Source: Escherichia phage AV117. From it: 64,000 nt of DNA. The notes below the pieces were generated by a model, which saw nothing but the letters and a program-made list of their open reading frames with translations, made no database searches and had not been told where the DNA came from. The position numbers were made by a program, and so were the translations under genes. The DNA lies in sequence record OR352947.1, one strand, 5' to 3'. Below are positions 10,649 to 38,757 of the stretch, piece by piece (the stretch's first letter is position 1; the number at the start of each line of letters is the position of its first letter).

Positions 10649-12462
10649 TGGTGTTTAACCCTATGCATGATTTCTTTATTTTTGCCGAGATTAAATCCAC
10701 GTTCATTCGGATTTCCAAGATAACCGCATGTTCTTCTTATTGTGTTCATCTTTTTAGGATCAGTTTCTCCACAAATAGAACAAACAAATCCGTTTTCGGT
10801 AGGAGTCATTTCATGGGTACTTCCACACGTAAAACATTTATCTACTGGCATATTAACACCAAAATAATCTAAATGTTGCGCAGCATAATCCCAGACAGCC
10901 TCAAGACCTTTTAGGTTATTTTTCATATCAGGAAGTTCAACATAAGAAATGTGTCCACCGGTCGCAATGAAATGATATGGGGCTTCGCGAGAAATCTTTT
11001 CAAACGGAGTAATATTTTCTTCTACTGAAACGTGGAAACTATTAGTGTACCAGCCTTTATCAGTAACATCTTTTACACTTCCATATTTTTCGATATCAAG
11101 TTTACAGAAGCGATAGCACAGGTTTTCAGCAGGTGTAGAATACAAGCTAAAAGCAAAACCGGTTCTTTCGGTCCACTGCTTAAGACGAGCATTCATTTTA
11201 GTTAAAATTTCCTTTCCAATATCACGACCGACAAGAATATTCAATTCGTGAATACCAATGTATCCTAAGGACACTGAACTTCTACCGTTTTTAAATAACT
11301 CAATTATATCGTCCTCAGGTTTAAGACGAACCCCGAATGCACCTTCTTGGTAAAGAATAGGAGCAACAGTAGCTTTAACTCCTTTTAAGGAACTAATTCT
11401 ACACATCAAAGCTTCAAAACACAGATCCATTCGTTCATTAAATAGCTCAACAAATTTCTGTTCATTGAATTGTGTTCCAATATAAGAATCTAACGCAATA
11501 CGAGGAAGATTCAGTGTTACAACACCAAGATTATTACGTCCATCAAGAATTTCATTACCGGTCGAATCTTTCCATACGCTCAAGAAACTACGGCAACCCA
11601 TTGGAGAAACAGGAACAGATGAACCGGTGATAGCTTTATTATTCTTAACTGAAATAATATCAGGATACATTCTTTTGCTTGCGCATTCTAAAGCAAGCTG
11701 CTTAATATCATAGTTCGGGTCGTCTTTATAAAGATTGACACCCTCTTCAACGAACATAACAAGTTTAGGGAAAATAGGAGTTATTCCATCACGACCAAGA
11801 CCTTTGATACGATTTTTCAGAATTGCTTTCTGAATCATTCGTTCAGTCCAGTCAGTTCCCGTGCCAAATGTAATTGTTACAAAAGGCGTTTGTCCGTTTG
11901 AACTAAAGAGAGTATTTACTTCGTATTCATACGCTTGGAATGCATCGTATACGTCTTTTTCTGTTTTAGATTGGGCATAATTCAACGCATCAGCGATTTG
12001 CCATTTTTCTGCATCCTCAATATGTTTTGCATAGGTGCGTTTAACATAAGGAGAAAGTACTTTATCTACATTAGCAAAAGTCGTTCCGCCGTACTGATGT
12101 GAAGCAACTTGTGCAGTAATTTGTGCCATAATTGCAGTAGCAACGCCGATTGATTTAGGAGTTTCAATTTGAGCATTGCCTAATTTAAATCCATTCTCAA
12201 GCATCCCCTTTAAATCGACTAAACAGCAATTAGTAAATGGAAGAGCAGGAGAATAATCAATATCATGGAAATGGATAATTCCGCTTTCATGTGCTTTCAT
12301 AATAAAAGACGGGACCATATTTTTGGCAATGTGCTTAGACACAATACCAGCCATAAGGTCCCGTTGAGTTGGAAAAACACGAGAATCTTTATTAGCATTC
12401 TCGTTCAAAAGATCTTTATTAGTTTTATGAATTAATCCTTCAATTTCTTTTTCAATTTTCAT
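10645..12462 (-). CDS. nrdD: Anaerobic ribonucleoside-triphosphate reductase NrdD (intronless)
   Basis: 605 aa; C-terminal glycyl-radical motif RRTCGYLG and C-x2-C...C-x2-C zinc ribbon; single uninterrupted ORF. Confidence 0.9.
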   Translation of the reverse strand: MKIEKEIEGLIHKTNKDLLNENANKDSRVFPTQRDLMAGIVSKHIAKNMVPSFIMKAHESGIIHFHDIDYSPALPFTNCCLVDLKGMLENGFKLGNAQIETPKSIGVATAIMAQITAQVASHQYGGTTFANVDKVLSPYVKRTYAKHIEDAEKWQIADALNYAQSKTEKDVYDAFQAYEYEVNTLFSSNGQTPFVTITFGTGTDWTERMIQKAILKNRIKGLGRDGITPIFPKLVMFVEEGVNLYKDDPNYDIKQLALECASKRMYPDIISVKNNKAITGSSVPVSPMGCRSFLSVWKDSTGNEILDGRNNLGVVTLNLPRIALDSYIGTQFNEQKFVELFNERMDLCFEALMCRISSLKGVKATVAPILYQEGAFGVRLKPEDDIIELFKNGRSSVSLGYIGIHELNILVGRDIGKEILTKMNARLKQWTERTGFAFSLYSTPAENLCYRFCKLDIEKYGSVKDVTDKGWYTNSFHVSVEENITPFEKISREAPYHFIATGGHISYVELPDMKNNLKGLEAVWDYAAQHLDYFGVNMPVDKCFTCGSTHEMTPTENGFVCSICGETDPKKMNTIRRTCGYLGNPNERGFNLGKNKEIMHRVKHQ

Positions 12463-14231: not shown

Positions 14232-14491
14232 TTAAAATATTCTCGCAGTTGGTCAAATCCACCAATATGACTTCCATCAGGAGCAAACACTTGAGGCATA
14301 GTCAATCCGACTTGTGATTCACGTCCAAGCTTAACCAGAAGCTCAGCAATTTTCTCATCATCAAAAACACCTTTTTCTGGCATAACATTAATGAATTCGA
14401 ATGGCTGTTTCTTAACAGTCAGCAATCGTTTCGCATTATCACAATAAATGCATTTATGAATAGTAGAGTCATACCCGTACACTTTAAACAT
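14228..14491 (-). CDS. nrdC: Thioredoxin/glutaredoxin NrdC
   Basis: 87 aa from ATG 14491 (MFKVYGYDSTIHKCIYCDNAKRLL...), SD AAAGGA; CxxC motif; sequence matches T4 NrdC. Confidence 0.8.
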   Translation of the reverse strand: MFKVYGYDSTIHKCIYCDNAKRLLTVKKQPFEFINVMPEKGVFDDEKIAELLVKLGRESQVGLTMPQVFAPDGSHIGGFDQLREYFK

Positions 14492-14897
14492 TATTTTTCC
14501 TTTCATCGATTAAATATGTAATGCCAAATACAATACATGTAATAAAACCTGTGATACAGATAGAAACCAACAACACTGTACCAAAGAACCAAATCAAGTT
14601 ATCTTTAGTAGTTTGTTTGATATCCATCTCACGAATTTCTATAGCTATCGTATCACCTTTATTCAGAAGCGTATAAAACGACGGTGATACATGCCTGTCA
14701 AAAACACGGCCTTGTTCATCTTTATAAACTGCAATAAATTCCAATTTAGAATATTTTCCTGTAGATTGGCCTGAGATTAATTCCACTACCTCCACAGGAA
14801 TTACTTTAGTTTCCATGTAAGTATTCTGGCTGTTCCAAATGAATGGAATAATAGCAAAAACTAAAGCTGCGATAAAACAACGAAGGCTATATCTCAT
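14484..14897 (-). CDS. Hypothetical membrane protein
   Basis: 137 aa with N- and C-terminal hydrophobic segments. Confidence 0.5.
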   Translation of the reverse strand: MRYSLRCFIAALVFAIIPFIWNSQNTYMETKVIPVEVVELISGQSTGKYSKLEFIAVYKDEQGRVFDRHVSPSFYTLLNKGDTIAIEIREMDIKQTTKDNLIWFFGTVLLVSICITGFITCIVFGITYLIDERKNNV

Positions 14898-15202
14898 TAT
14901 AATGTTCTCTCAAATTTGTGGAAGCATTTACGGCATTTCAATTTCAAGTTATCAGTGGTCCAGTTAACCAGTTGGACTTGGATAGTTCCACATTCCGGGC
15001 ACGGATGTTTTGCTGCCGTTTTGGCAGCATTTTCACGTCGTTCAACCATTTTCATTATTTCGTTCCATGCCGGAGGAACGAACTCTCCTTCACCGTGGAT
15101 TTTATCTCGCTGAACAAATTCAATCTTTGAACTATCGTCAATAAACTTAACCAAGCCGTGATTAGTGCTCATATCAATATCCTCTAAAAGACGTAGTTTC
15201 AT
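14897..15202 (-). CDS. Hypothetical zinc-ribbon protein
   Basis: 101 aa with CPECG...CRKC. Confidence 0.5.
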   Translation of the reverse strand: MKLRLLEDIDMSTNHGLVKFIDDSSKIEFVQRDKIHGEGEFVPPAWNEIMKMVERRENAAKTAAKHPCPECGTIQVQLVNWTTDNLKLKCRKCFHKFERTL

Positions 15203-16146
15203 TATAAAACCTCAATGGCATTTCGTAAACCATCAGCTTTTGCATTCAGAGCTTTTAATGATTTAGTTTGTTCTGCAATCTGGGCTTCGACTTCTTTCAG
15301 GCGAGATTTGAGATATTCGCGTTCTTCTCTTAAGTTATCAACTTTTTCTGCTTTAGGCTCTTTAATAGGCTTATACTCGTTAGGGTTCTTCAACTTAATT
15401 TGAATGCGAGAACTGTATAACATTGAACCATTATCTTCGGTTTCATCATACATTTCTACCACGTCCATGATTCTTAACATCATGCGAAGTTTATAAGACA
15501 GCGAACGAATGGTTTTGTTGTGCTTATTAATTTCTTCGGCTTTCATGGTACCGAGATTACGTGAGTAGTAATAAGGAACCTGGATATCAATTGATAATGA
15601 TGCGGTACCATTACCTGTTGGTTTGAACACTGCAGTAACCCAATCTTTAGCATGAACTGTATTTGTACGATCATCGCCACCTGTGAATAATTTACGTGAA
15701 TGTTTAAAAAGCATATTCACTTGGTTATTGAATTCACAAGCAAATTTATCAGCAAATTTAGTTTCAGGAATGGTAGTTAACCAATCAGCCAAATGAGTCT
15801 TTTTAACATCATTAACAATAGTGAATTCAACCAAATCGGTTTTAGATGTCACAGATTTAATAAAGCTCGGCTTCATAAAGTTTTTAATGTTATCGCGAGC
15901 TACAGTAGAAGATAATAAACGAGAACGTTTGAACCATTGAAGCAGTGTCCCTAATGAATGAGAATACGCATTCTGAGTATCTTTACAGATATGATTTTCT
16001 TGGCCTGTGTATGTACCAAAATCGCGAAGAATACCACTTACTACATCTCGGTGTGGAACATCAAATCCTAGTGCACCAGTAGCGCGCTGAGCATGAACGT
16101 TAGCGATAAGACCTGCAAAATAATCAATGTAATGTGAACGTGTCAT
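15202..16146 (-). CDS. Hypothetical protein with C-terminal coiled coil
   Basis: 314 aa; own early promoter; C-terminal heptad-rich region (LREEREYLKSRLKEVEAQIAEQTKSLKAL). Confidence 0.55.
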   Translation of the reverse strand: MTRSHYIDYFAGLIANVHAQRATGALGFDVPHRDVVSGILRDFGTYTGQENHICKDTQNAYSHSLGTLLQWFKRSRLLSSTVARDNIKNFMKPSFIKSVTSKTDLVEFTIVNDVKKTHLADWLTTIPETKFADKFACEFNNQVNMLFKHSRKLFTGGDDRTNTVHAKDWVTAVFKPTGNGTASLSIDIQVPYYYSRNLGTMKAEEINKHNKTIRSLSYKLRMMLRIMDVVEMYDETEDNGSMLYSSRIQIKLKNPNEYKPIKEPKAEKVDNLREEREYLKSRLKEVEAQIAEQTKSLKALNAKADGLRNAIEVL

Positions 16147-16174
16147 AATATTTTCCTCTCGTTAAGATAGAAAG

Positions 16175-16204
16175 ATTATACTCCAACCATCCTTGGTTGT
16201 AAAC
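16175..16204 (-). promoter_or_regulatory. Early promoter (GTTTAC-N18-TATAAT)
   Basis: Minus strand GTTTACaaccaaggatggttggagTATAAT, about 30 nt upstream of ATG 16146. Confidence 0.5.
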
Positions 16205-16208
16205 TGAT

Positions 16209-17141
16209 TTATGATTTTAATGCATTCATTGCGTTAAAAAGTTTAGAGTACTGCAACTGGAGCTTGGTAACTACTTGTTGAGCATCACGAAGCTTAGCTT
16301 GTGCTTTGTCAAGTTCAACAGACAGTTGGTCCGCAGTGGCTTTGATTTGATTATAATAGTAATCTTCGGCAGGAAGAAGACCGTTAGAGATTTCCAGTTT
16401 AGTCGACGGTGTGCCATTAAACATAACAGGTTGTGCTGAAGCCGCATTAATCTTACCGATAGTCGGGGCGACAATAATTGACGCTTCGAACGTTGCATTT
16501 TCCTTTTTAAGATTTTTATAATATTCAGAGTCTTTGTGCCACCATGGCGCAGGAACCTTTTTACCAATAGATACACGAGCCTGGATAGCGATATGGCCCT
16601 TATTCTTGATAACGTCGATAATATTAAGCTCACGAGAATAAATTGCTTTAATCTGGTAAATATTATCACCTAACACTTCCAACGCTTGGTGGAATACACG
16701 AGCAACGTTATCATTCTTAGGTTTATACGTAAGAGTGAACTCGTTCTCACTGATAACCATGATTTCTAACTTATCGTAAGTATATTTCAAATGTTTCATG
16801 TTAATTGCTTGAGGACGAATACGAGAAGCAATGGCCATCAGATTGTTAAGGTTATTTCTGAACTGTTTAGCAAAATATTGTCCTTCACCGCCAATACAAA
16901 AATTACGAAGTTTCTGTTTGGCTAATAAACGACTGAACTCGCCATTTTTAATGAACTCTTTAACTGGTGTGTTAGTAACGCATTCAAATTGAGTAAACTT
17001 ACGAGAAGTAATCCCATAATATGAACAGATTTCCTCAATCTCTTCAGGAGTCTTTACAGGCATACGGATAGGATTAGGTCCTGGGGTATATGCGTTCGAG
17101 GTAAATTCTTTGATAAGTTCTCTACGTGTAATAAAAGCCAT
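16209..17141 (-). CDS. Hypothetical protein with C-terminal coiled coil
   Basis: 310 aa; SD GAGGAATAT; C-terminal LSVELDKAQAKLRDAQQVVTKLQLQY. Confidence 0.55.
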   Translation of the reverse strand: MAFITRRELIKEFTSNAYTPGPNPIRMPVKTPEEIEEICSYYGITSRKFTQFECVTNTPVKEFIKNGEFSRLLAKQKLRNFCIGGEGQYFAKQFRNNLNNLMAIASRIRPQAINMKHLKYTYDKLEIMVISENEFTLTYKPKNDNVARVFHQALEVLGDNIYQIKAIYSRELNIIDVIKNKGHIAIQARVSIGKKVPAPWWHKDSEYYKNLKKENATFEASIIVAPTIGKINAASAQPVMFNGTPSTKLEISNGLLPAEDYYYNQIKATADQLSVELDKAQAKLRDAQQVVTKLQLQYSKLFNAMNALKS

Positions 17142-17167
17142 TTTATATTCCTCATGTTGAAAAATTT

Positions 17168-17197
17168 ATTATACTCCAACCATCCCTGGTTGTACAT
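17168..17197 (-). promoter_or_regulatory. Early promoter (TGTACA-N18-TATAAT)
   Basis: TATAAT with upstream TGTACA; shares the ccaaccatcc..tggttgta core with the promoter at 16175. Confidence 0.45.
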
Positions 17198-18192
17198 CAT
17201 TCCTTAAGAAGTTTTACTACTTGAATAAGATTAGCTCGTTCCGTTTTATTTTTACCATTTAAGCCTGCTAATCGTGAGATTTCATCATCAGTCTGTTGAA
17301 TAGTTACATTAAGTTCGTTAATCAAAGCTTCAAAGTATTTGATTTGCTCAGCATGTTTTGATTCAAATTTCTGAACCGGAATAACGTCTTGGTTCAGTTC
17401 ATCAATAAGGTCTTTAAGAGCATCTTCTTGGTTGATATCATATTCAACTTCTTTTATTTCTTCAACGAGCTCGTCTTTATATCTAACGTCTTTTAGTCCT
17501 GGTGCTGGTCCTGAAATCTCTTCTTTAAGAGTACAAACATATCCAATACGGTATCCAATGCCGTCTCGCTTGATATCAACTTCGTCAATAAATCCACAAT
17601 GTTTAAGACCAGAGCCGATTAGGTCAAAATATCCTTGACGTCGTCCTTCAAACGTTACACGAACTACTAAGACAGTTTTACCTGCAACCTTTTGAAGCTC
17701 ACATTTATAAAAGTTTGTTGAACCTGAATACCGTGGATGAGTTTTAAAGTTCATCTGACGATCTAGGCCCATTTGTAAGCGTGCTGATACGGCCATAAAA
17801 CGTGTTTGGTTCTCGTTAAGATGAGCAACAATCCATTTCAAAGGCATTTTACACTGTTCACGACCGAACAAATCAGTACGTCCTAGATTACGCAGAATGT
17901 TGTTAGAGTTAATCATCGACAGAACGTTAAGTTTATTCAGCGCGCTGAAGATTCCATCAGCCATTGATTTTCCGTAACCTTTACACGCTTTAATAAGCGC
18001 TCGCGGTAGATTAGTATAAATTTCAGACGGCATATGAAAATCAAATTTACTAGTCAGTAATTGATGAACTTGGATAGCAATTTGCTCATAATTAAGTGCT
18101 CTGCGATCATTATGGTCTTTAAACCACACTTTAATCTGTGAAGCACATAAACCGTTAATTTCATGTTTTACCGCATCAGATGTAATGCTCAT
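17197..18192 (-). CDS. Hypothetical protein with C-terminal coiled coil
   Basis: 331 aa; SD GAGGAAATAG; C-terminal heptad region; upstream TATAAT with a MotA-box-like CGCTTTA. Confidence 0.55.
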   Translation of the reverse strand: MSITSDAVKHEINGLCASQIKVWFKDHNDRRALNYEQIAIQVHQLLTSKFDFHMPSEIYTNLPRALIKACKGYGKSMADGIFSALNKLNVLSMINSNNILRNLGRTDLFGREQCKMPLKWIVAHLNENQTRFMAVSARLQMGLDRQMNFKTHPRYSGSTNFYKCELQKVAGKTVLVVRVTFEGRRQGYFDLIGSGLKHCGFIDEVDIKRDGIGYRIGYVCTLKEEISGPAPGLKDVRYKDELVEEIKEVEYDINQEDALKDLIDELNQDVIPVQKFESKHAEQIKYFEALINELNVTIQQTDDEISRLAGLNGKNKTERANLIQVVKLLKE

Positions 18193-18254
18193 AACTATTT
18201 CCTCAGATTGAATTGGAACTCAAAACCATTATAACCCGTCCTTGGGTAAAGCGT

Positions 18255-18782
18255 TTATGCGTGAACCGTCTTTAAACGTTCTTCAAATTTCCGAAGAGTA
18301 CTAATACGTTCTGCTTTCTGTTTTGTATAGTTTGCAATACGTTCTGAAGTGAGAGCGTATCGTTCATTTACTGTTTCTTTCATGAAGTCAGGGATTTCAC
18401 GAGAAGCTTTAATTTCATCAAACTTATCGAGTACTGCCTGGTCTTCAGCGATTAAATTTTCGTACATCTCGATATCTTTCTTGATAAACTCGATATCTTC
18501 CTGGGTTACTTTGGATAAACGAGATGCTTTATCCTTTTTGTACTGCTCGTTAGTTTCACGAGACCAGAATAATGTACGTTTTTTGTTAGTGTTTTTGTAG
18601 ACTTCCACAATTCCAACTGAATCGATGATAGCAATCCAATTCCAGCGAGATTTGAAAATCTGACCTCCGTCTACGGTAATCTCGTTACCATAAGCAACGT
18701 CATTAAAGAACTTGCTTTGTGCTTCAGATTTAAATTTACCGTCGTTATAATTTACCAGGTTGAAAATATCTTTAGCGTTCAT
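18255..18782 (-). CDS. Hypothetical protein
   Basis: 175 aa; SD GGAGGTAAAAC; early promoter at 18810-18838. Confidence 0.5.
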   Translation of the reverse strand: MNAKDIFNLVNYNDGKFKSEAQSKFFNDVAYGNEITVDGGQIFKSRWNWIAIIDSVGIVEVYKNTNKKRTLFWSRETNEQYKKDKASRLSKVTQEDIEFIKKDIEMYENLIAEDQAVLDKFDEIKASREIPDFMKETVNERYALTSERIANYTKQKAERISTLRKFEERLKTVHA

Positions 18783-18809
18783 GTTTTACCTCCAGTAGTT
18801 GATAGGTCT

Positions 18810-18838
18810 ATAATAACATAACCATAGACCTTGTAAAC
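18810..18838 (-). promoter_or_regulatory. Early promoter (GTTTAC-N17-TATTAT) with inverted repeat AGGTCTAT/ATAGACCT
   Basis: Minus strand GTTTACaaggtctatggttatgtTATTATagacctatc. Confidence 0.5.
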
Positions 18839-18840
18839 AA

Positions 18841-19128
18841 CTAAAAGAAACTTTTTTCGGTATTTTTTCCACTGAACCAAACCGATTTCGGAATTTTCTG
18901 TAATTTTTCAGATTTAAGTTTCTCTTCCTGTTCTTTCTTATATGCATCCTTGTCGTACTGGAACAACTCTAGGGCATTCTTTTGCAAACGATCTAAGGTA
19001 ATTAAGGCTTTAGTTTTTCCTTTCAAGGAAGAGTCCTGGCGAACCTCCTCGCTGTATTGCATCGTAGAACTAACCATACGATGAGCATACAGTTCGACTG
19101 CGGCTTTAATTTTTTGCATAAAATCCAT
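18841..19128 (-). CDS. Hypothetical protein
   Basis: 95-aa lysine-rich ORF. Confidence 0.45.
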   Translation of the reverse strand: MDFMQKIKAAVELYAHRMVSSTMQYSEEVRQDSSLKGKTKALITLDRLQKNALELFQYDKDAYKKEQEEKLKSEKLQKIPKSVWFSGKNTEKSFF

Positions 19129-19266
19129 AACATATCCTCTTTGATTTGTATACCATTATTTTTAAATATTTCTATGCCCTCAGTAGGTTCCTGGTGTCCT
19201 TCTTTGAGGTAAGCCATATGATTATTCATCTTTATGGCTTTTGTTACCTCAGAACTTCCTATAAGC

Positions 19267-20247
19267 TTATTTCAGTAAAGTTACTTCAGAGATTTCCTCC
19301 CAACCATCTTTATCAGTTGAAATAAAATCTGCTACATAAAGAGCCGTACGTAATGATACATTGCGAAGACGAGATACGTTGGCCTTCATCCAGGACAATG
19401 CTTTATACGTTTCTGCATCTGTCAGACCACGTTTCTGCATCATGTCAGTAGATAATATTACATCTTCAACTCGAACCATAATCTCTTCATTAGAGTGTAC
19501 TCCGAGGTCGAGATACACTGAACGAGATACTAAAGCTTGAAGGTGTGGGGCAAGTTTCGAACCGCGTTCTAACTCTTTATCGATATCAACGTTTGTAATG
19601 AAAACGATAGTACCTTCAAACTCAAATTCTTTATCAATACCCTTATCATCGAGATAAGATGACGCAGTGCTCCAGCAAACTTTGCGTTTATCTCCAGTAT
19701 CTAATGCTGCTTTAAGAAGGTTCAAGATGTCCATATCCGAGAATACGTCAACGTCGTCGATTAAGAGAACGCTGTCTGCATCACGGTTGAGCCAAAGTTG
19801 TTCGTAAAGGCCAATACCAGAGATTTTACCATTAATGCTTTTGTATTTGATGAAACCATTATCATTAGCATTATTAAGTGCTTTATCCAGAGAATACGTC
19901 TTACCAATACCAGCTGCACCTGAAATAATGAGTGAACGAATTTTGCCATCGATAATGCCATTCGTCATCATGTTCATTACTTTAAAGCGTTTGTTGATAC
20001 GAGTTTTCATATCTTCAGTGCTTTCAACAACTGCAACTGGTGATGTCTCAACTCCTTCCATTACGATGTCTGATTTGAAGACCCATACTCCACGTTCAGA
20101 ACCATCAATCATAACGAAAATTTTACCATCACCTAAGTGGGAACATTCAGGATTAAGCTTTGCCGGGAACCATGTCTTTGTGGCAACATAAGAACCAGAG
20201 ATTTCGTTATTACGATAGATACCTTTTTTGATTTGAACGTTGAACAT
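19267..20247 (-). CDS. P-loop NTPase (AAA-like) with N-terminal domain
   Basis: Walker A GAAGIGKT, Walker B LLIDDVD, possible sensor-1 FITN; start moved to ATG 20247 with SD GGAGAATAAA. Confidence 0.55.
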   Translation of the reverse strand: MFNVQIKKGIYRNNEISGSYVATKTWFPAKLNPECSHLGDGKIFVMIDGSERGVWVFKSDIVMEGVETSPVAVVESTEDMKTRINKRFKVMNMMTNGIIDGKIRSLIISGAAGIGKTYSLDKALNNANDNGFIKYKSINGKISGIGLYEQLWLNRDADSVLLIDDVDVFSDMDILNLLKAALDTGDKRKVCWSTASSYLDDKGIDKEFEFEGTIVFITNVDIDKELERGSKLAPHLQALVSRSVYLDLGVHSNEEIMVRVEDVILSTDMMQKRGLTDAETYKALSWMKANVSRLRNVSLRTALYVADFISTDKDGWEEISEVTLLK

Positions 20248-20285: not shown

Positions 20286-20314
20286 ATAATAACATATCCT
20301 AAAAGCATGTACAC
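20286..20314 (-). promoter_or_regulatory. Early-type promoter (GTGTAC-N17-TATTAT)
   Basis: Conserved gataggtctataataaca box shared with the 18810 promoter. Confidence 0.4.
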
Positions 20315-20345
20315 TACTTTTTTAAAAATATTTTAACCCCCTAAA

Positions 20346-20361
20346 GGGACCCGAAGGTCCC
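20346..20361 (-). terminator. RNA hairpin GGGACC-UUCG-GGUCCC (terminator or stability element); part of a 28-bp exact repeat
   Basis: 20336-20363 is identical to 38836-38863; sits just 3' of the stop of 20367-20630. Confidence 0.45.
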
Positions 20362-20366
20362 CACAT

Positions 20367-20630
20367 TTACTTATCGCACTTAGCAACATAATTAGGCATA
20401 TCACAGAATACGGAGCGAGTAACTACTCGGCCCTTTGACCATGCTTCAGTTGCTTGTCCGGCTGTGCTATTAATATAGCTTGATCTAATGTTCTCAATAC
20501 CCTGAGAATGTGATGCATTTACAGAACCATTAGAAGTCCCAGAAGACTGGTTACTACCAGCTGCACCCGTGGTAGCACCAACAGAGAATGCCATCATTAC
20601 TGCGAATAAACCAATTACTAATTTTTTCAT
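20367..20630 (-). CDS. Small secreted protein (signal peptide)
   Basis: 87 aa; N-terminal MKKLVIGLFAVMMAFSVGA, then Ser/Gly/Asn-rich region and C-terminal cysteine pair. Confidence 0.5.
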   Translation of the reverse strand: MKKLVIGLFAVMMAFSVGATTGAAGSNQSSGTSNGSVNASHSQGIENIRSSYINSTAGQATEAWSKGRVVTRSVFCDMPNYVAKCDK

Positions 20631-20661: not shown

Positions 20662-21651
20662 TTATTTATAGTAAGAATTATGATTTTCGAGATAGACTTG
20701 TTCAAGGAAGTCATCCCAGAAACTCATATCTACTTTTTGTTGCATACCGTTCTTGGCAGCTTGTTCTGACGCATGTTCAACTTGGTCAACGATATCTTCT
20801 AGGAATTCTTGAACAGTTTTAAACGTATGTTTACCAAGCTTAACATCGAGAATAAATGGAGCATCCTGAAGTGGGTAAACCAGGTCGCCTGTTTTGTAAA
20901 TTTCCAATAATTGAAGTCCACCACGACATGCATGACTCAATGCTTTCCAGTCAATACCTTCGTTAGCTTCTGCCTTACGAGCACGTTCACCATAGTTCTC
21001 TTCCAGTTTAACCAGGATGGCATTGAACTCTTTATTGGTTAACGTGTCTTGGAATTTACGGTCTAACAGATTATAGAATGTTTGCTTACCTGTTTTCTCG
21101 TTTTCAGTTTCAACCCACGAAGCAAATTCACCTACAGGCAGAACATTCTTCATATGTGATAAACGAATTACCGCACCATTATCAAAGTATTGTCCCCATT
21201 CATTAGAACGTTTAAGGGCTTGACGAAGAACAGCCAGTCGAGAACCCTTGACACCGTATTTAGAAGCTTGCTTACGGACATACCCTAAATAAGATTTCAT
21301 GTTAGTGGTATAGAAACGAGACCTGTTATCTTGAATATACTTCCATACATCAGGCAAATCAGATTTAACTACTAAACTTGGTGGAGTGTGAAGCATATCT
21401 AATGCGACGGTTTCACCATCCGCCGCTAATTTAAAGAAATATTTGAGACTATACAACTCATGGTCTACGTCGTCTTTTGTGTTCTTAGAAGATGTGTTAT
21501 TCGTGTTCTTGCTCATGTGTTCTTTAACGTTACCGGTCAAGATATCACGAGCGTGAGGGACATAAATTTCTTTAAAATCGACGTCAGATTCAGGAGTAGA
21601 CGTTCCGTAAAGGTGGCTACCAAAGTAGCCTTTCATAATTGTTTTCATCAT
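20662..21651 (-). CDS. Pol-beta-superfamily nucleotidyltransferase-fold protein
   Basis: N-terminal GS-x9-13-DxD signature (YFGSHLYGTSTPESDVDF) plus downstream acidic strand TVALDMLH; 329 aa with helical C-terminal half; ATG overlaps the upstream stop (ATGATGA). Confidence 0.6.
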   Translation of the reverse strand: MMKTIMKGYFGSHLYGTSTPESDVDFKEIYVPHARDILTGNVKEHMSKNTNNTSSKNTKDDVDHELYSLKYFFKLAADGETVALDMLHTPPSLVVKSDLPDVWKYIQDNRSRFYTTNMKSYLGYVRKQASKYGVKGSRLAVLRQALKRSNEWGQYFDNGAVIRLSHMKNVLPVGEFASWVETENEKTGKQTFYNLLDRKFQDTLTNKEFNAILVKLEENYGERARKAEANEGIDWKALSHACRGGLQLLEIYKTGDLVYPLQDAPFILDVKLGKHTFKTVQEFLEDIVDQVEHASEQAAKNGMQQKVDMSFWDDFLEQVYLENHNSYYK

Positions 21652-38195: not shown

Positions 38196-38224
38196 TTTGT
38201 TTCTCCTCTGTAGTTGATAAGTCT

Positions 38225-38254
38225 ATAGTATCACCATCCTTGGTGTTTGTACAT
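38225..38254 (-). promoter_or_regulatory. Early promoter (TGTACA ... TACTAT)
   Basis: Conserved gataagtctatagta box with inverted repeat CACCAAGGATGG/CCATCCTTGGTG. Confidence 0.45.
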
Positions 38255-38757
38255 CATTTATTTTTAATTTTGCAAATTTTTTCTGCTTCAACAATTGCAG
38301 CGTCAATGATGCTTTGTGCAATTTTATTACTAGTTGACCTGGCAATCACACTAAGAACAATTTCTTTTTCTTCACCACCCCAACCCCAAGTCCTTTGTTC
38401 GTGGGTACCTTTAACTACAGCTGAAACTTCAACAGAACGTCCACCATCAGAAGTTTTAACATCTACAACCCAATCACCATCTTTCTCTTCTACCCTTGAT
38501 TTATCCCAAGAAATACTAATATATGATTCGCTATCAATAGAAGTCGCCGGGTTTTTCTCTACCGTAAGACCTTCACTTTCCAGCCATTCAATAGTATTTG
38601 CGCATAAATCTGAAGAACACCTAATCGGAAACCGGCAAGATTTTTCACCTTTAGCTGCAGCGTTATACATCTTTTCTAAAATACGCTTTTGCACGTTTTT
38701 AAAAATAGTTTCAGCAGATTCTTCAGATTTTTTATTCAGTTCAGTGTAAAGACTCAT
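38254..38757 (-). CDS. Hypothetical protein
   Basis: 167 aa; SD GGGGAGAATATT. Confidence 0.5.
   Translation of the reverse strand: MSLYTELNKKSEESAETIFKNVQKRILEKMYNAAAKGEKSCRFPIRCSSDLCANTIEWLESEGLTVEKNPATSIDSESYISISWDKSRVEEKDGDWVVDVKTSDGGRSVEVSAVVKGTHEQRTWGWGGEEKEIVLSVIARSTSNKIAQSIIDAAIVEAEKICKIKNK

Follow-up and report, generated by a model that had tools for sequence, protein, structure and literature searches.

A Mosigvirus array of nrdC.3-, nrdC.5- and nrdC.6-type genes: possible diverged paralogues encoding early immune antagonists, beside a separate ATPase module

Escherichia phage AV117 (sequence record OR352947.1) carries three consecutive large genes, together with a gene for a P-loop ATPase, in a 5.4-kb stretch that is 96.5-98.6% identical at the DNA level to many Mosigvirus genomes (RB69-like Straboviridae). 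From an analysis of 64,000 nucleotides of this phage, referred to here as the window, we lean on balance towards the view that the three genes form a tandem array of diverged paralogues that encode early antagonists of host immunity, and that the ATPase is a separate module. The genes themselves have been catalogued before, and one of their families has a published function. What is new is the link between the families, since T4 nrdC.3, nrdC.4, nrdC.5 and nrdC.6 look like members of one diversifying family.

Results

Identity of the three genes

The initial annotation placed the three open reading frames (ORFs) exactly, in coordinates as well as in length, and we name them w314, w310 and w331 (314, 310 and 331 amino acids; Table 1). 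It could not assign them or the ATPase gene to a known T4 function, but all four are named T4 genes, namely nrdC.3, nrdC.5, nrdC.6 and nrdC.10, respectively. We read the block as the Mosigvirus form of T4's nrdC.3-nrdC.6 accessory region; nrdC.4 is absent from the window phage. Every gene concerned, including the intervening genes, is on the minus strand. The order of transcription is the nrdC.11 counterpart, an 87-amino-acid ORF, nrdC.10, nrdC.9, nrdC.8, w331, w310, w314, an nrdC.2 homologue, a membrane protein gene and the nrdC thioredoxin gene. Because of this orientation, the ATPase gene is transcribed before the three large genes and not after them, as had been proposed, and the nrdC.9 and nrdC.8 counterparts intervene.

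w310 provides the connection to a protein of known effect. It matches PF23882 with 366.8 bits (cut-off 30) over profile positions 1-307, and T4 nrdC.5 matches the same family at 5e-126 (420.6 bits). Compared directly by BLASTP, w310 and T4 nrdC.5 are 25% identical (E 2e-10), and the RB69 homologue of w310 carries the name NrdC.5. The two proteins are alike in family membership over the full length, in position within the array, in length class and in their coiled-coil ends (KLFNAMNALKS in w310 and KLNNALNALN in T4). They are unlike in overall identity, which is only 24-25%, and in the linker. The w310 type was found in 145 phage records, almost all of them of Mosigvirus type.

The other two ORFs are counterparts of T4 NrdC.3/NrdC.4 (PF26897) and of NrdC.6 (phrog_2257), which are uncharacterised early proteins. 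All 82 database relatives of the nrdC.3/nrdC.4 profiles carry PF26897, and in w314 a helical N-terminal domain precedes an alpha/beta core, from which a disordered linker leads to the C-terminal helix. BLASTP of w331 against T4 nrdC.6 gave 38% identity (E 4e-19) over only the N-terminal part of about 127 amino acids (residues 27-152), and the tail of w331 matches the 295-amino-acid version of nrdC.6 found in other T4-type phages. Relatives of w331 are rare, with six among 1.84 billion cluster representatives. Unlike T4 NrdC.6, w331 keeps its coiled-coil tail, which the T4 reference has lost, apparently by a 1-nucleotide (nt) frameshift, and its acidic linker is longer. In that reference (NC_000866 40000-60000, at about 11997-12075, minus strand), the annotated nrdC.6 stops early (..KQIEELIFLFNNMMMKFSDYLD), and the tail of the other T4-type nrdC.6 proteins (..RLSGLSSKAKSEREKLIKIVDLLKS) is still encoded in another frame, ending 8 nt before the start of nrdC.5. 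This looks like a 1-nt frameshift, either in T4 itself or in the sequence record.

The PHROG families of w314, w310 and w331 are all of unknown function. No enzyme family or fold was detected for any of the three; NCBIfam, PADLOC and PDB sequence searches returned only chance-level matches, and a protein-database search with the profiles of the three families joined end to end gave no match.

Antagonism of Dsr1 by T4 nrdC.5

The functional evidence comes from Srikant, Guegler and Laub (eLife 2022, PMC9391042), who found that T4 nrdC.5 overcomes the Dsr1 defence. Neither ECOR17 nor MG1655 equipped with dsr1 from ECOR17 supports plating of a T4 deletion mutant, plating is restored by expression of nrdC.5, and loss of nrdC.5 has no effect on a Dsr1-free host (PMC9391042). 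Dsr1 is a SIR2-domain protein that is thought to deplete NAD+. Beyond the 2022 paper, we found nothing in the literature on the mechanism of NrdC.5 or on an anti-Dsr1 structure. A host-targeting role for the three genes, as suggested in the initial annotation, is therefore backed to the extent that T4 nrdC.5, from the same Pfam family as w310, overcomes Dsr1; for all members of the window array, w310 included, it is argued by analogy.

Relationship between the N-terminal heads

BLASTP comparisons among w314, w310 and w331 returned nothing (E >= 0.25), and at that level it was fair to describe their N-terminal heads as unrelated. That description is countered by profile comparisons that outperform decoys, by collinear motifs, by the order of structural elements and by four Foldseek targets in common.

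In profile-profile comparisons, nrdC.3 matched nrdC.4 with 97.6% probability (E 3e-12, 226 columns) and, with richer alignments, NrdC.3/4 matched NrdC.5 with 94% (E 1e-7, 212 columns). Two families of more distant phages (X338 and X360) were matched by NrdC.6 at 92-93% and by NrdC.5 and NrdC.3/4 at 67-77%. Because coiled coils can give spurious matches, the hhalign comparisons were repeated after the last 60 residues had been cut from every sequence. After this control we withdrew the full-length matches as proof of head homology, and the claim was lowered and recalibrated with decoys, for which 18 unrelated families from the same loci supplied 90 comparisons (minimum E 0.015, median 0.3). Four tail-trimmed pairs kept E values of 2.6e-4 to 8.4e-4, and six of the ten tail-trimmed comparisons within the set (E 2.6e-4 to 1.1e-2) beat every decoy. 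The X260 family of distant phages and L020a, which have no relation to the array, were used as negative controls. A 343-amino-acid neighbour of an nrdC-like gene in Acinetobacter phage Konradin was considered as a further relative and rejected, having weak matches only (best 22%, E 9e-4).

Conserved motifs occur in the same order upstream of the tail, namely SR[LI]....L.N[FY], then F..F...L..A.R in the central helix, then L..M..VE; an N-terminal TRxxYIxxF is found in the nrdC.3, nrdC.4 and nrdC.5 types. The AlphaFold2 (AF2) model of w314 (predicted local distance difference test score, pLDDT, 80.8; predicted template-modelling score, pTM, 0.72) and that of w331 present the same succession of elements: five helices at the N-terminus and a long central one come first, then two beta-hairpins with a helix between them, and last a disordered linker and the C-terminal helix. 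The w314 model has an extra three-stranded insertion. Each model gave 10-11 matches at E <= 1e-3 when compared by Foldseek with BFVD. All of the named matches are uncharacterised proteins of 211-378 amino acids from T4-like phages, whose hosts are Escherichia, Shigella, Yersinia, Enterobacter, Pectobacterium, Acinetobacter, Klebsiella, Erwinia and Serratia. Four targets (A0A345AUV5, A0A2Z4QAR2, E5EYP0 and A0A1Z1LY96) are common to both models, with alignments that cover 330-370 columns and so extend beyond the tail, and two consecutively numbered Acj61 entries, E5E4A1 and E5E4A2, were matched by one model each. We consider it probable that the heads are very diverged paralogues, with support weakest for w310.

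The C-terminal coiled coil

Heptad repeats were assessed with a crude a/d score of our own, taken over the best 35-residue window and compared with 300 shuffles, and the scores were ranked among the 50 ORFs of at least 150 amino acids in the 64,000-nt window. w314 ranks first (residues 266-300, z 6.7) and w310 second (residues 276-310, z 5.1); each lies above all 300 shuffles, and the positive controls, fibritin and the Rad50-like gp46, score at the same level. w331 ranks 11th, with a z of 2.0 that is inside the shuffle range. The heptad-rich C-termini described earlier are thus borne out for w314 and w310, whereas the score of w331 is modest, though helices are predicted there.

That the tail is shared is genuine: a motif of the [KR]L..A[ILM]..L[KR] type closes every family and is absent from neighbouring unrelated proteins. 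Examples of the tail end are GLRNAIEVL, KLFNAMNALKS, NLIQVVKLLKE, RLEQALQLIK and KLLHAMQELRK. Heptad repeats and long predicted helices are the basis for suggesting that the coiled coil probably makes these proteins dimers or higher oligomers. The linker that precedes the tail is disordered in the w314 and w331 models and differs between Mosigvirus w310 alleles (310 and 319 amino acids). We also considered whether the tail exists as a free-standing module, in the form of two short proteins (P0106 and P0107) with a w331-type tail, and rejected the idea, as these look like truncated or fused nrdC.6 fragments.

Promoter cassettes

Each gene had been said to have its own promoter and Shine-Dalgarno sequence (SD). 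GAGGA lies 7 nt 5' of the ATG in all three genes, so the latter part of the statement stands. The former applies to w314 and w310, which have strong promoters of the T-even early type within their 55-62-bp upstream gaps; for w331, the promoter scan found no sigma-70 promoter, and there is only a MotA-box-like element, which resembles the Mot-box middle promoters described previously (PMC4122927). The w314 and w310 cassettes have a near-identical 27-nt core, TACAACCA[A/G]GGATGGTTGGAGTATAAT, that no shuffle of the window reproduced and that contains a small hairpin in the spacer that separates the -35 box from the -10 box (-6.9 kcal/mol in the w314 cassette and -7.8 in the w310 cassette). In T4, the same CCA-AGGA-TGG hairpin is found 5' of nrdC.4, nrdC.3 and nrdC.7, and the CGCTTTA-N13-TATAAT element that precedes w331 also follows nrdC.8.

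These cassettes are reminiscent of the PeSLs (promoter-early stem-loops) of T4-type phages, in which an early promoter with a stem-loop, sometimes located between -35 and -10, is followed by an SD and ATG (Arbiol et al. 2010, PMC2839356; Comeau et al. 2014, PMC4122927). PeSLs flank the variable genes of hyperplastic regions and mediate gene shuffling (PMC2839356). The window cassettes are likewise intergenic, with a TTTACW-N17-TAYWAT promoter, a stem-loop between the two boxes and an SD and ATG; the accessory genes that they precede are variable and belong to a hyperplastic region, and genes next to one another are flanked by copies that are nearly identical. They are unlike PeSLs in that their stems are short (6 bp) and weak and in that the third one resembles a middle (Mot-box) version. 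On these features, the w314 and w310 cassettes are putative PeSLs under the published definition, whereas the w331 cassette fails the promoter scan.

A further copy of this promoter design lies well away from the array, at 38222-38262 (minus strand), where TGTACA is followed by a spacer with a CACCAAGGATGGTG hairpin and then by a -10 box, GAGGA and an ATG. The core CCAAGGATGG, with one mismatch allowed, occurs seven times in the window, where 2.05 occurrences would be expected.

Divergence, copy number and exchange

We sampled 18 IMG/VR contigs anchored on the conserved nrdC.10 gene and clustered their ORFs; with GADS24, T4 and the window this gave 21 loci with nrdC.10. Among related phages, the number of large ORFs at the array position varies from two to four. 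The array genes are 24-56% identical to their T4 counterparts, compared with 77-92% for the neighbouring genes (Table 1), which we read as the signature of an arms race. In two loci, L008 (15482-16408) and L009 (15485-16414), the flanking genes are of T4 type, but the nrdC.3 allele has 81% identity to that of Mosigvirus, compared with 58% for T4's own. These alleles, of Mosigvirus type in T4-type phages, suggest exchange of single gene cassettes between genera.

The NrdC.10 ATPase

The initial annotation correctly described a 326-amino-acid P-loop protein with both Walker motifs. Walker A (GAAGIGKT) occupies residues 110-117 and Walker B (LLIDDVD) residues 161-167, and both are invariant in nine NrdC.10 homologues that are 66-83% identical. 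The likely start is the ATG at 20247, which has GGAG 7 nt upstream and gives the length of 326 amino acids. No curated AAA family scored above its cut-off, the best being AAA_22 with 22.1 bits against a cut-off of 27 bits. There was no NCBIfam match, PADLOC gave only a weak match to SspF (E 0.022, 11.2 bits), and the PDB sequence search returned nothing significant.

NrdC.10 was found in 1311 phage records, among them jumbo phages such as RaK2 and phages of Vibrio, Acinetobacter and Aeromonas. Its gene has its own terminator-like hairpin and promoter, and in all 21 loci it adjoins the gene for NrdC.11, an RlaP-type nucleotidyltransferase. The earlier suggestion that the ATPase may be unrelated to the three genes agrees with this far wider distribution and constant pairing, and we treat NrdC.10 as a separate conserved module that probably works with NrdC.11.

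Table 1. Coordinates of the array, its tails and promoters and the neighbouring genes, with protein identity to T4
Feature	Coordinates	Strand	Identity to T4	Remarks
w314, NrdC.3-type, 314 aa	15202..16146	-	56% (nrdC.3)	Identity over full length, E 2e-123; phrog_1435 at 3e-104
w310, NrdC.5-type, 310 aa, DUF7235	16209..17141	-	24% (nrdC.5)	PF23882 at 1.3e-109, end to end
w331, NrdC.6-type, 331 aa	17197..18192	-	25% (nrdC.6)	phrog_2257 at 2.2e-127, residues 1-331
Coiled-coil tail of w314 (residues 272-313)	15208..15333	-		Single 42-residue helix in AF2 model
Coiled-coil tail of w310 (about residues 262-310)	16212..16358	-		Residues at a/d, taken from the sequence: I L A A L L L / A L L V Y M
Helical tail of w331 (residues 274-330), broken at GLNGKNK	17203..17373	-		AF2 helices at 274-307 and at 313-330, where model confidence is highest
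Early promoter cassette 5' of w314	16175..16203	-		TTTACA-17-TATAAT, 11/12 consensus positions; spacer hairpin CAACCA-AGGA-TGGTTG; then GAGGA and ATG
Early promoter cassette 5' of w310	17168..17196	-		TGTACA-17-TATAAT, with the spacer hairpin of the w314 cassette
CGCTTTA-N13-TATAAT element 5' of w331	18228..18253	-		Possible MotA-type middle promoter; related to the two early cassettes but shorter
NrdC.10 P-loop NTPase, 326 aa	19267..20247	-	77% (nrdC.10)	phrog_1250 at 1e-161
NrdC.8 counterpart, 175 aa	18255..18782	-	83% (nrdC.8)	phrog_2274; between the ATPase gene and the array
NrdC.9 counterpart, 95 aa, DUF7203	18841..19128	-		PF23833 at 5e-24
RlaP-type nucleotidyltransferase, T4 nrdC.11 counterpart	20662-21651	-	78% (nrdC.11)
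NrdC			92% (nrdC)

Discussion

We suggest that the array consists of tandem and very diverged paralogues, in each of which some five helices at the N-terminus would be followed by an alpha-beta-beta-alpha-beta-beta core, a linker that is disordered and variable, and a coiled coil ending in a conserved L..A..L[KR]. Each gene appears to sit in its own small cassette of promoter and SD, and the two early, PeSL-like cassettes would provide early expression. Such a layout could allow single genes to be gained, lost or swapped through recombination between cassettes. The proteins are most likely non-enzymatic binders that would neutralise host immune proteins; we favour a binding-type antagonist over an enzyme because of the absence of an enzymatic signature, the fast-evolving head, the conserved oligomerisation-type tail and early expression. 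The head would hold target specificity, and the paralogues may therefore cover different defence systems or alleles. By analogy with T4 NrdC.5, we infer that NrdC.3, NrdC.6 and the NrdC.5 of Mosigvirus would also act against host defence. A plausible analogy for direct binding is DSAD1, the inhibitor of DSR2 from SPbeta-family phages, which likewise comes from a phage and gives protection from a sirtuin NADase associated with defence. However, DSAD1 targets DSR2 and not Dsr1, and the analogy with NrdC.5 is drawn on function, not on sequence or fold.

Several points weigh against this interpretation. Among nrdC.3-nrdC.6, experimental support is limited to T4 nrdC.5 (PMC9391042), and with only 24-25% identity between w310 and the T4 protein that was tested, conservation of anti-Dsr1 activity is not assured. 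The coiled coil accounts for much of the signal in the profile-profile comparisons, which is much lower once the tail is trimmed, when NrdC.3/4 matches NrdC.5 with a probability of 5% (E 0.007, 18 columns) and NrdC.3/4 does not match NrdC.6 significantly. The checks by pairwise profile and structure proposed in the initial annotation gave a mixed answer: there is a common element order, and six of ten pairs beat the decoys, but the direct comparison of NrdC.3/4 with NrdC.6 is not significant. The structural comparison covers the w314 and w331 models, w310 being without one; confidence in the w331 model is low (pLDDT 62, pTM 0.40), and the Foldseek template-modelling (TM) scores are low (0.2-0.46). 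Finally, the spacer hairpins of the promoter cassettes are weak (-7 to -8 kcal/mol, z about -2).

It is conceivable, although somewhat unlikely in our estimation, that the three proteins serve in early host takeover or in regulation and have no connection with immunity, for instance by binding components of the host nucleoid or of its transcription or protease machinery, and that the effect of T4 NrdC.5 on Dsr1 is indirect. Expression from strong early promoters would suit such factors, the helical N-terminal domain has a weak Foldseek match to a helix-turn-helix protein (E 4e-3, prob 0.57), pin, a neighbouring gene in T4, acts as an inhibitor of the host protease Lon, and the literature offered no mechanism for NrdC.5. 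Yet it is nrdC.5 that restores infection of dsr1+ cells, its loss is harmless on a Dsr1-free host, and the genes can be dispensed with and vary greatly in both number and sequence, which is unusual for factors aimed at conserved host machinery. We regard it as unlikely that three unrelated effector domains were each fused to a common mobile coiled-coil module, leaving the tail as the only homologous part. The same order of helices and hairpins in the w314 and w331 models, the collinear SRLL....L.NF, F..F...L..A.R and L..M..VE motifs upstream of the tail, the six tail-trimmed pairs that beat all 90 decoys and the length of the Foldseek alignments to common targets, which is not that of the tail alone, all argue for related heads. 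Such fusions would nevertheless account for the empty BLASTP comparisons, for the strong matches of tail-only profiles (NrdC.5 and X338, 89%, E 2e-6), for the collapse of several matches on tail removal and for one distant family that matches DUF7235 in the last 67 residues only.

Proximity and a common strand might also suggest that the P-loop ATPase acts with the three coiled-coil proteins as one system, which we find very improbable. NrdC.10 far exceeds the w310 type in number of phage records (1311 and 145), and its adjacency to NrdC.11 is constant while the large ORFs downstream vary from two to four. It is also 77% identical to its T4 counterpart, as opposed to 24-56% for the three genes, and it is set apart from them by its own hairpin and promoter and by two intervening genes. 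Diverged paralogous antagonists alongside a separate ATPase module remain our preferred interpretation. An extension of it, which in its full form we think quite unlikely, is that nrdC.3-nrdC.6 represent a birth-and-death family of coiled-coil-anchored immune antagonists across the Straboviridae, each directed against a different defence sensor. The head could then be a decoy for sensors of phage structural proteins, and the conserved C-terminus could let paralogues co-assemble.

If the three genes do encode related immune antagonists, the four long-unexplained T4 genes nrdC.3-nrdC.6 would become a defined family to screen against defence systems, one that takes in counterparts in hundreds of coliphages that are candidates for therapy. 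It would also help to explain differences in host range between otherwise near-identical phages. The array would then be an example of how counter-defence diversifies, through tandem duplication, rapid divergence of the head on a conserved tail, and exchange by means of promoter cassettes.

Neighbouring genes

The gene 3' of w314 is nrdC.2-like and encodes a four-cysteine zinc ribbon. The stop codon of w314 and the ATG of this gene overlap by 1 nt (TAATG, 15200-15204, minus strand), which suggests translational coupling. Further downstream, an nrdC.7-like membrane protein (14484-14897, minus strand), 36% identical to T4 nrdC.7, adjoins nrdC in the window. In T4, nrdC.7 is placed between nrdC.8 and nrdC.6, so gene order has been rearranged locally within the block.

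At the other end, the 87-amino-acid ORF between the nrdC.11 and nrdC.10 counterparts (20367-20630, minus strand) has no Pfam match, and T4 has no counterpart at the same position; its N-terminus, MKKLVIGLFAVMMAFSVGA.., resembles a signal peptide. It is followed on the 3' side by a terminator-like hairpin (20335-20351, minus strand) and then by the nrdC.10 promoter (20286-20313, minus strand). In public phage records, up to eight different genes of the block are labelled "thioredoxin", although the 87-amino-acid nrdC product is the only thioredoxin among them; the labels appear to come from the nrdC.N locus names.

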